A DNA stretch of 11,200 nucleotides from a virus (Duplodnaviria; Heunggongvirae; Uroviricota; Caudoviricetes): IMG/VR virus record IMGVR_UViG_2529292736_000009, positions 1 to 11,200 of that record; one strand, written 5' to 3'. The first letter of the stretch is position 1, and each line of letters opens with the position of its first letter. The position numbers and the translations under genes are program-made. Shown in pieces: positions 5,632 to 5,880 of this stretch. Under the pieces are notes generated by a model. It made no database searches, was not told the origin of the DNA, and worked only from the letters and a program-made list of their open reading frames with translations.

Positions 5632-5880
5632 AGTGGGTAGTAAAAGTGGGTAGTAAAAGTGGGTAGTAAAAGTGGGGAGTAAAAGTGGGGAGTAAAAGTG
5701 GGGAGTGTGGGGAATTTAACAAAATTGAAACGCGATTCCCCACTTTCCCACCTGTATATACCTCAAAAAGTGGGGAGTAAAAAATACATTGAAAAACATC
5801 ACGTTAGAATCACAAAAAAAAGAAGTGGGGAGACGTTGGGTAATTTCAAAAAGTGGGTAGTAAAAGTGGGGAGCAGTGAG
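5632..5880. repeat. Replication origin iteron array: six tandem 13-bp units GTGGG(T/G)AGTAAAA (5633-5710) plus dispersed direct and inverted copies (5736-5746 inverted, 5770, 5825, 5853, 5866) flanking an AT-rich stretch
   Basis: Seen directly; begins 3 nt after the rep stop codon; classic rep-ori arrangement of satellites and plasmids. Confidence 0.8.

Follow-up and report, generated by a model that had tools for sequence, protein, structure and literature searches.

A probable iteron-type replication origin behind a RepA-like helicase gene in a phage-inducible chromosomal island of Escherichia coli

Phage-inducible chromosomal islands (PICIs) have their origin of replication directly 3′ of the gene for the replication initiator (Fillol-Salom 2018, ISME J, PMC6092414). 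The origin of one such island, EcCICFT073, is composed of two sets of iterons placed around an AT-rich region; the cloned pri-rep-ori segment maintains a thermosensitive plasmid, rep is required, and deletion of ori significantly reduces maintenance (PMC6092414). Four Pri-Rep alleles are listed for the E. coli PICIs in the same study, the supplements of which contain no iteron sequences (PMC6092414). Here we describe an array of short repeats located directly downstream of a gene encoding a 471-aa RepA-family helicase (Rep) in an 11,200-nt stretch of DNA (positions 1 to 11,200 of the IMG/VR record IMGVR_UViG_2529292736_000009; hereafter, the window).

It is highly probable that this array serves an EcCICFT073-type PICI as its origin of vegetative replication. 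A preliminary description of the DNA, made from the sequence alone, had proposed an iteron-type origin served by the upstream helicase, and this proposal is well supported by the gene context, the conservation of the layout, the covariation between iterons and Rep, and the published position of the EcCICFT073 origin.

The window and EcCICFT073 (which we found at L084:11931-22655) have the same order of island genes. As in the published PICI origins, the array of the window lies immediately 3′ of the initiator gene and its iterons flank an AT-rich region, and in both islands a conserved 83-aa open reading frame (ORF) and ssb follow. The two initiators are related only in their N-terminal parts: residues 1-131 of Rep are 62% identical to the N-terminus of the EcCICFT073 Pri-Rep (L084:16242-16643), while the remainder is unrelated. 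The helicase part matches AAA_25 (RepA-like) in the window, but D5_N, DUF5906 and Pox_D5 (D5-like, superfamily 3 [SF3]) in EcCICFT073. The iterons are also unrelated (GTGGGKAG in the window, GGTAGAYA in EcCICFT073), and the left array of the window is expanded to six units.

The Rep proteins of the staphylococcal islands (SaPIs) SaPIbov1 and SaPI1 are self-loading helicases, whose C-terminal winged helix reads 5-6-nt iterons around an AT-rich centre (PMC9371898). The SaPI origins resemble the locus described here in their location right after rep and in having short iterons (6-12 in SaPIs) split by an AT-rich centre (PMC9371898). In both systems the initiator is itself a helicase with a C-terminal winged helix (initiator role and winged helix being predicted for the Rep of the window), with no separate loader known (PMC9371898). 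However, the SaPI Reps belong to the AAA+ class (SF3/MCM-like) and the Rep of the window to AAA_25; moreover, the SaPI iterons of 5-6 nt occur at least twice per side in opposite directions, whereas the cores in the window are 8-9 nt long.

RSF1010 and other IncQ plasmids have a helicase core of the same family (AAA_25; RSF1010 RepA, 1g8y, is a weak match to Rep, E 0.021) and also combine iterons with an AT-rich region, but their iterons are 20 bp long, and the helicase of the window has its own (predicted) winged helix. In IncQ replication the iterons are bound by RepC, a protein distinct from the helicase, and priming is the task of a dedicated primase, RepB. No RepC homologue or separate iteron-binding protein was evident in the window. 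An iteron plasmid origin of the Rep_3/WH1-WH2 type (pPS10, R6K, RK2, F) was considered and rejected: AAA_25 is the sole Pfam match of Rep, the unit is 13 nt long with a core of 8-9 nt, and no DnaA box (up to one mismatch) is present in 5600-5900. Rep_3-type plasmids use a dedicated non-helicase initiator, 17-22-bp iterons, and DnaA boxes beside the AT-rich region. In P4, the multifunctional alpha protein binds octamer repeats via a C-terminal winged helix. As a satellite of enterobacterial phages P4 is similar to the present element (see the comparison in PMC6092414), but alpha is a D5-like primase-helicase, its repeats are different and lie in two separated regions (ori and crr), and the gene content is not the same (PMC6092414).

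Organization and conservation of the iteron array

The rep gene ends with a TAA stop codon at 5627-5629 and the first repeat core, GTGGGTAGT, starts at 5633, i.e. 3 nt past the stop, as had been noticed in the preliminary description. Six head-to-tail units, AAAAGTGGGKAGT, occupy positions 5629-5706 (Tandem Repeats Finder [TRF]: period 13, 6.0 copies, 98% matches, score 135). The first three cores (starting at 5633, 5646 and 5659) are of a T variant and the next three (5672, 5685 and 5698) of a G variant, the difference being confined to core base 6. Immediately next to the array, and not set off by the AAAA spacer, stands a seventh direct copy, GTGGGGAAT (5707-5715). It is separated by 19 nt from an inverted copy, and positions 5701-5715 form with the region of this copy a 15-nt inverted repeat (87% complementary). 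The left side comprises nine copies: eight direct (5633-5715 and 5770) and one inverted. The layout given previously (three T and three G units, an inverted copy, an AT-rich segment and three further copies) needs small corrections: it lacked the seventh direct copy, the perfect copy at 5770-5778 and the degenerate copies at 5836 and 5876, and the inverted copy is ATTCCCCAC at 5735-5743 (Table 1).

The AT-rich segment has a GC content of 0.225 in the 40 nt between 5780 and 5819 and an AT skew of +0.55. The 30-nt duplex of lowest stability within 5400-6200 starts at 5778 (nearest-neighbour dG -33.0 kcal/mol).

Allowing up to one mismatch, AGTGGGKAG matches the 11.2-kb window 13 times, compared with 2.67 +/- 1.72 matches in 200 dinucleotide-preserving shuffles of the window, none of which reached 13. 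Eleven of the 13 matches are located within 5632-5873. The repeat cluster is a real feature and not a chance accumulation. Elsewhere, a lone perfect iteron core (AGTGGGGAG) is present at 8830-8838, inside the Nu1-like gene, probably by chance.

No DnaA box (with up to one mismatch), IHF consensus or GATC was found in 5600-5900. The array region did not match any Rfam family, and the folding of the single strand was modest (z -2.7) and due to the inverted iterons; a reading of the region as a structured RNA or hairpin was therefore abandoned.

When one genome per bacterial species was scanned, 80 loci with relatives of Rep were obtained, in genera including Xenorhabdus, Pectobacterium, Serratia, Pantoea, Morganella and Kosakonia. 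In nearly all of them, short repeats start at the rep stop codon or a few nt after it, and an inverted copy is present at the equivalent position. The order of elements is retained, running from direct iterons through an inverted iteron, TATATAC and a direct iteron to an AT-rich segment with more direct iterons beyond it. TATATA occurs in 54 of 77 aligned sequences (the window and 76 of the loci), and the T/A columns of the palindrome are at least 90% conserved in the alignment (A1). Its distance from the rep stop is nearly constant, at 59-86 nt in most relatives, but amounts to 128 nt in the window, which equals the 76 nt of Xenorhabdus plus an expansion of exactly 52 nt. In most relatives the palindrome is preceded by no more than 2-3 iterons. 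The cores themselves vary between lineages: GTGGGKAG in the window, and GTGAGGA, ATGAGGA, GTGCGGC, GTGGGGA or GTGGGGGA elsewhere.

It had initially been suggested that the two unit variants might reflect recombination between related origins or discrimination by Rep. Several observations argue against both. The T-then-G pair recurs in the right arm (5853 and 5866), and mixing at base 6 is found in other origins, such as GTGAGT/GTGAGG in Xenorhabdus and in L100; Asn-type origins (see below) mix these two forms. The close allele L088 starts with a G-type unit and has the T type in its inverted copy and in one copy of the right arm. Finally, an identical 471-aa Rep accompanies 2, 5 or 6 units (Table 1). 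Base 6 thus looks like a tolerated wobble, with both units acceptable as sites.

The occurrence of an identical Rep with 1T+1G, 2T+3G and 3T+3G arrays indicates that the 3+3 arrangement is a local amplification of an ancestral T-G pair, and the sequences of the alleles look like the outcome of recent, stepwise slippage. The best complete-genome match covers only 94% of the query, and all 12 sampled full-length matches from complete E. coli genomes span 409-410 nt, versus the 461 nt of the query, so that four units are missing from them; relative to the common E. coli allele, the array of the window is longer by 52 nt. Alignment with one near-identical island (L001) revealed the absence of exactly four units (52 nt), with one T and one G unit left. 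The short-read contig L094 terminates within the array.

These alleles bear on an alternative that is improbable as a separate explanation, according to which the core origin is the conserved part only (a single T-G pair together with the inverted copy, GTATATAC, the AT-rich segment and the right iterons), the other four units being products of neutral slippage, or sites that titrate or handcuff Rep and so tune copy number or incompatibility, outside the initiation machinery. The shorter complete-genome alleles, the constancy of Rep with varying unit numbers, and the 2-3 iterons that precede the palindrome in most relatives are all in its favour. It refines the interpretation of the array as the origin rather than competing with it, and the persistence of at least three unit-number alleles in sequenced strains is compatible with neutrality.

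A further allele with the same Rep (L091) retains only fused left and right T-G pairs, the core of the origin having been lost via recombination between 21-nt direct repeats (GTGGGTAGTAAAAGTGGGGAG). The island that carries it is predicted to be replication-defective.

Rep and the specificity of the iterons

Rep appears to have three parts: an alpha/beta domain at the N-terminus (residues 1-131), the helicase core (~152-320) and, at the C-terminus, a predicted winged helix (~407-471). AAA_25 matches residues 152-320 (E 4.8e-44) and phrog_2850 covers the full-length protein, which is annotated as 'helicase RepA family protein' in E. coli genomes. When the last 151 residues of Rep were searched by sequence against Pfam and the PDB, no informative match was obtained. 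An AlphaFold2 model of residues 318-471 was confident only at 407-471 (pLDDT 83-93), where three helices are followed by a beta hairpin, i.e. the topology of a winged helix. His447 (codon CAC, 5552-5554) starts helix 3. Nearly all of the best Foldseek matches in the PDB were winged-helix DNA-binding domains (IclR/PcaR, ArsR/CzrA, Fur, DnaD-N, the MCM8 winged helix and ORC). The N-terminal domain (coded by 4214-4606) was modelled with a pLDDT of 83.5 as an alpha/beta fold without a helix-turn-helix; a structure search with it returned no convincing match, the best being the catalytic domain of gamma-delta resolvase (E 0.09, probability 0.44).

The preliminary description had proposed the N-terminal domain for binding assays (EMSA) on the unit variants. 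That this domain reads the iterons is unlikely, as the N-terminus is common to the window and EcCICFT073 and their iterons are unrelated. The relatives from other genera represent the reverse case: they have only residues ~136-468 of Rep in common with the window, their N-termini differ, and their iterons are close variants of those described here. These two natural domain swaps indicate that iteron specificity goes with the helicase and C-terminal part and not with the N-terminal domain. A possible common motif in the AT-rich segments of the window and EcCICFT073, AAAAATACATT, was considered as a site for the N-terminal domain, but this idea was dropped, since the Enterobacter locus L099 has a homologous domain without the motif; that E. 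coli islands are related to one another is the simpler explanation of the similarity.

Specificity instead tracks a single residue of the predicted winged helix, the one that precedes F in the motif K-x-F-x-R-W-L (His447 in the window). We compared this residue with base 4 of the iteron in all callable loci, i.e. those Rep-relative loci to which a dominant iteron could be assigned (n=76). His (n=14) and Lys (n=27) occur with G, Asn (n=28) with A, and Ser (n=6) and Gly (n=1) with C, and this mapping is consistent in 76 of 76 loci. Changes were counted by parsimony on a neighbour-joining tree for which only the helicase part, not the winged helix, was used. The residue changes nine times and the base eight times, and the combined state also changes only nine times, which indicates that residue and base shift on the same branches.

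Matched pairs of proteins with His or Asn at this position were found in three sequence backgrounds, and the iterons switch as predicted in each. In the first and clearest (...RRWLYKL), the last 65 residues of Rep from E. coli L085 differ from those of the window by H447N alone, and the iterons of L085 are GTGAGGA. The other pairs are P0056 and P0073 (...RRWLGKL), the latter from Salmonella, and P0008 and P0033 (...SRWLRKL). Taken together, the comparisons provide strong indirect evidence, at the level of sequence, that the winged helix of Rep binds the repeats. For a binding comparison, GTGAGGAG is a candidate oligonucleotide core beside the T unit, the G unit and a scrambled core.

Among the proteins examined, P0026 of E. 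coli (563 aa) consists of an AAA_25 Rep joined to a head-decoration domain (PF02924), which points to a deletion that joined rep to the decoration gene with loss of the origin, ssb and the capsid gene.

Function of the array and alternative explanations

The binding of Rep, the site of melting, the self-loading of the helicase and any effect of the extra copies are inferred, and we propose the following course of events. The upstream gene would produce a RepA-like (AAA_25) hexameric helicase that also acts as the initiator. Its C-terminal winged helix would read GTGGGKAG, and base 4 would be recognized by His447, which lies at the beginning of the recognition helix. Rep molecules would fill the iterons of the left array and right set as well as the inverted copy, and the duplex would open between them at the GTATATAC palindrome and/or at the 46-nt A-rich segment. 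In this way the array would work like the origins of EcCICFT073, the SaPIs and P4, where short repeats around an easily melted stretch, just downstream of the initiator gene, are bound by an initiator-helicase through its C-terminal winged helix. The helicase would then load itself, and the SSB of the island would cover the single strands. The excised circle would be amplified in this way and subsequently packaged at the lambda-type cos site. What we observed are the anatomy and non-randomness of the array, its gene context, the conservation of its layout, the covariation of residue and iteron, and the copy-number polymorphism.

Several points weigh against the identification of the array as the origin. 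The published replication test was performed with EcCICFT073, which has a D5-like SF3 helicase and unrelated iterons, and it supports the slot and the architecture, not the Rep-origin pair of the window. The iterons on either side of the long AT-rich segment have the same orientation, unlike the opposed arrangement of SaPIs (PMC9371898): all copies flanking 5779-5824 are on the + strand, and the lone inverted copy, in the left half, faces GTATATAC. The duplex stability of the AT-rich segment is the lowest locally and not across the whole window, and the Foldseek matches to winged helices are individually weak (best E 0.08). Finally, the segment encoding the winged helix is located less than 200 bp from the iterons, and recombination that moves the rep 3′ end and the origin as one block could generate some of the covariation by linkage alone. 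Nevertheless, all copies in an origin change uniformly, which still favours functional matching.

It is very unlikely that the repeats are instead operators at which a regulator of the island (AlpA, the DUF4222 protein or the 83-aa protein, for example) controls the ssb-capsid genes. The array does lie between two genes of a unidirectional operon, and the last of the good copies on the right coincides in part with the likely ribosome-binding site (RBS) of the next ORF. This G copy (5866-5873) is 9 nt ahead of the ATG at 5883, and it therefore probably doubles as the RBS; such a role leaves the other copies unexplained. On the other hand, no sigma-70-like promoter or intrinsic terminator was found in 5400-6200, and it is a residue of Rep, and none in the other proteins examined, with which the iterons covary. 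In addition, the slot corresponds to the origin region in the cloned pri-rep-ori of EcCICFT073 that was assayed for plasmid maintenance (PMC6092414).

A packaging (cos/pac) or partition (centromere-like) site, suggested by the fact that tandem repeats beside AT-rich DNA are also known in terminase-binding and ParB/ParR-binding sites, is scarcely credible, given the exact lambda cosN sequence, GGGCGGCGACCT, 2.7 kb away and adjoining the Nu1-like gene, the lack of partition genes among the window proteins in general Pfam/PHROG scans, and the normally integrated, chromosomal state of the island.

The island and its significance

The genes of the window were assigned by protein-family scans (Pfam, PHROG) of its ORFs, and their coordinates are listed in Table 1 together with the elements of the origin. 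The order is int, AlpA-like, DUF4222, rep, array, 83-aa ORF, SSB, lambda gpE-like capsid protein, gpD-like decoration protein, second AlpA-like protein, cos and Nu1-like, with all major ORFs on the + strand. The 83-aa ORF is also the next gene after the origin in the E. coli relatives and in EcCICFT073. Since this gene order is that of EcCICFT073, the window represents a classical ~10-kb EcCICFT073-type PICI, inserted next to smrA in the chromosome of E. coli. It has the features by which PICIs of Gram-negative bacteria are recognized: an integrase at one end, alpA, unidirectional genes, rep with an origin, a size of ~10 kb, a cos site of the helper type and an incomplete set of virion genes.

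Table 1. Features of the origin region and of the island in the window, and allelic forms of the array found with an identical Rep
Feature	Position	Strand	Basis or remarks
Tyrosine integrase	1-1230	+	
AlpA-like regulator	1429-1785	+	
DUF4222	3918-4217	+	
rep, 471-aa RepA-family (AAA_25) helicase, putative initiator	4214-5629	+	Pfam, PHROG
Segment encoding the predicted winged helix (Rep 407-471)	5432-5626	+	AlphaFold2
Left iteron array, six tandem 13-nt units AAAAGTGGGKAGT and abutting copy	5629-5715	+	TRF, sequence
Inverted iteron ATTCCCCAC (= GTGGGGAAT on the minus strand)	5735-5743	-	
Partial copy TTTCCCAC, directly after the inverted iteron	5744-5751	-	Part of element 5735-5751
Conserved palindrome GTATATAC	5754-5761	.	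After the inverted iteron, before the following direct one
Perfect direct iteron GTGGGGAGT	5770-5778	+	Left edge of the AT-rich segment
AT-rich, A-skewed segment, 46 nt, presumed DNA-unwinding element	5779-5824	.	Composition, duplex stability
Right iteron set	5825-5884	+	Good copies at 5825, 5853, 5866; degenerate at 5836, 5876
Right-set copy GTGGGGAGA	5825	+	
Right-set degenerate copy TTGGGTAAT	5836	+	
Right-set T copy GTGGGTAGT	5853	+	
Right-set G copy GTGGGGAGC	5866	+	
Right-set degenerate copy GTGAGGAAT	5876	+	
Conserved 83-aa ORF, phrog_1231	5883-6134	+	Directly after the origin
Island SSB	6131-6553	+	Pfam SSB, E 8e-16; phrog_44
Second AlpA-like ORF	8175-8558		
Lambda cosN cohesive-end sequence GGGCGGCGACCT	8615-8626	+	Exact, 0 mismatches
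Nu1-like ORF	8751-9302		
Allele 1T+1G	L092, L093		Identical Rep
Allele 2T+3G	L089		Identical Rep
Allele 3T+3G	L090		Identical Rep; rep stop -12 to +275 same as window
Origin-core deletion allele	L091:2416-2450 (GCA_016022515.1)		Identical Rep; 33 nt between rep and next ORF

Core E. coli chromosome, with smrA (present in 5385 of 5426 genomes), starts at ~10 kb of the window. The related, near-identical island L001 is located between tRNA-Pro and yejO. DNA similar to the 801-nt stretch 5400-6200, which covers the rep 3′ end, the origin, the downstream ORF and the start of ssb, was detected in 1726 of the 5426 complete genomes of E. coli, with very few exceptions on the chromosome. There was no megablast match among the INPHARED phages, and only five records labelled as plasmids were matched, some of them chromosome-sized or plasmids with an integrated island. 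The lack of phage matches and the small number of plasmid records identify the element as a chromosomal island, and neither a phage nor a plasmid.

By our own arithmetic, an exact match to the 12-nt cosN sequence is expected ~0.001 times by chance (11.2 kb, both strands). On sequence grounds this site is likely the packaging site of the island, apart from the origin, and the Nu1-like protein may redirect the terminase of the helper. A capsid-forming PICI was excluded: there is no portal, protease or large terminase, and only capsid-E-like, decoration-D-like and Nu1-like proteins are encoded before the chromosomal flank.

Other features of the island were noted. Degenerate 10-nt repeats, GACACAACGA / AACAACGACG (~4 copies, 1254-1300), are located between the integrase stop codon (1230) and the AlpA-like ORF, and may be sites for a regulator or a recombination protein. 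Five GTGACA motifs with a 10-11-nt spacing (9858-9905; TRF period 10, 4.8 copies) follow the ORF 9537-9851 near the right end of the island; possibilities are Int/Xis arm sites or regulator sites. The overlapping ORFs 3244-3483 and 3449-3709 match positions 1-76 and 72-153 of phrog_2512, respectively; the gene may be split or frameshifted in comparison with some relatives, or the family may represent a fusion. The 396-aa ORF 1838-3028, in which no Pfam domain was found, resembles anti-repressor (Ant) families only in short and weak matches and may have an accessory or interference role in the island.

The origin is of an already described kind, and the finding is mainly a correct annotation, with an unusually expanded array. 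Within the literature searched, the one-residue/one-base rule, the polymorphism in iteron number and the natural deletion of the origin are new, modest details.

A wider picture, plausible but put forward only tentatively, is that the initiators of enterobacterial PICIs are modular. A common N-terminal domain would be combined with either an SF3 D5-like or a RepA-like (AAA_25, DnaB/RecA-fold) helicase, each bringing a C-terminal reader of its own and an origin to match. Within the RepA-like branch, one residue at the start of the recognition helix would set the specificity (His/Lys for G, Asn for A, Ser/Gly for C at base 4) and thereby define replication-compatibility groups of co-resident satellites. 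Slippage in steps of 13 nt (2, 5 or 6 units) would tune origin strength or cross-titration, while recombination between the left and right T-G pairs would yield origin-less, immobile islands like L091.

PICIs are abundant in E. coli and mobilize virulence and phage-defence genes, and their amplification after induction by a helper phage relies on the Rep-origin pair. The locus described here offers a testable specificity rule for RepA-like PICI initiators, alleles that differ only in iteron number, and a natural allele with a deleted origin. These may be of use in probing how a self-loading helicase of the RepA type recognizes and opens its origin, and whether co-resident satellites avoid competition between their initiators.

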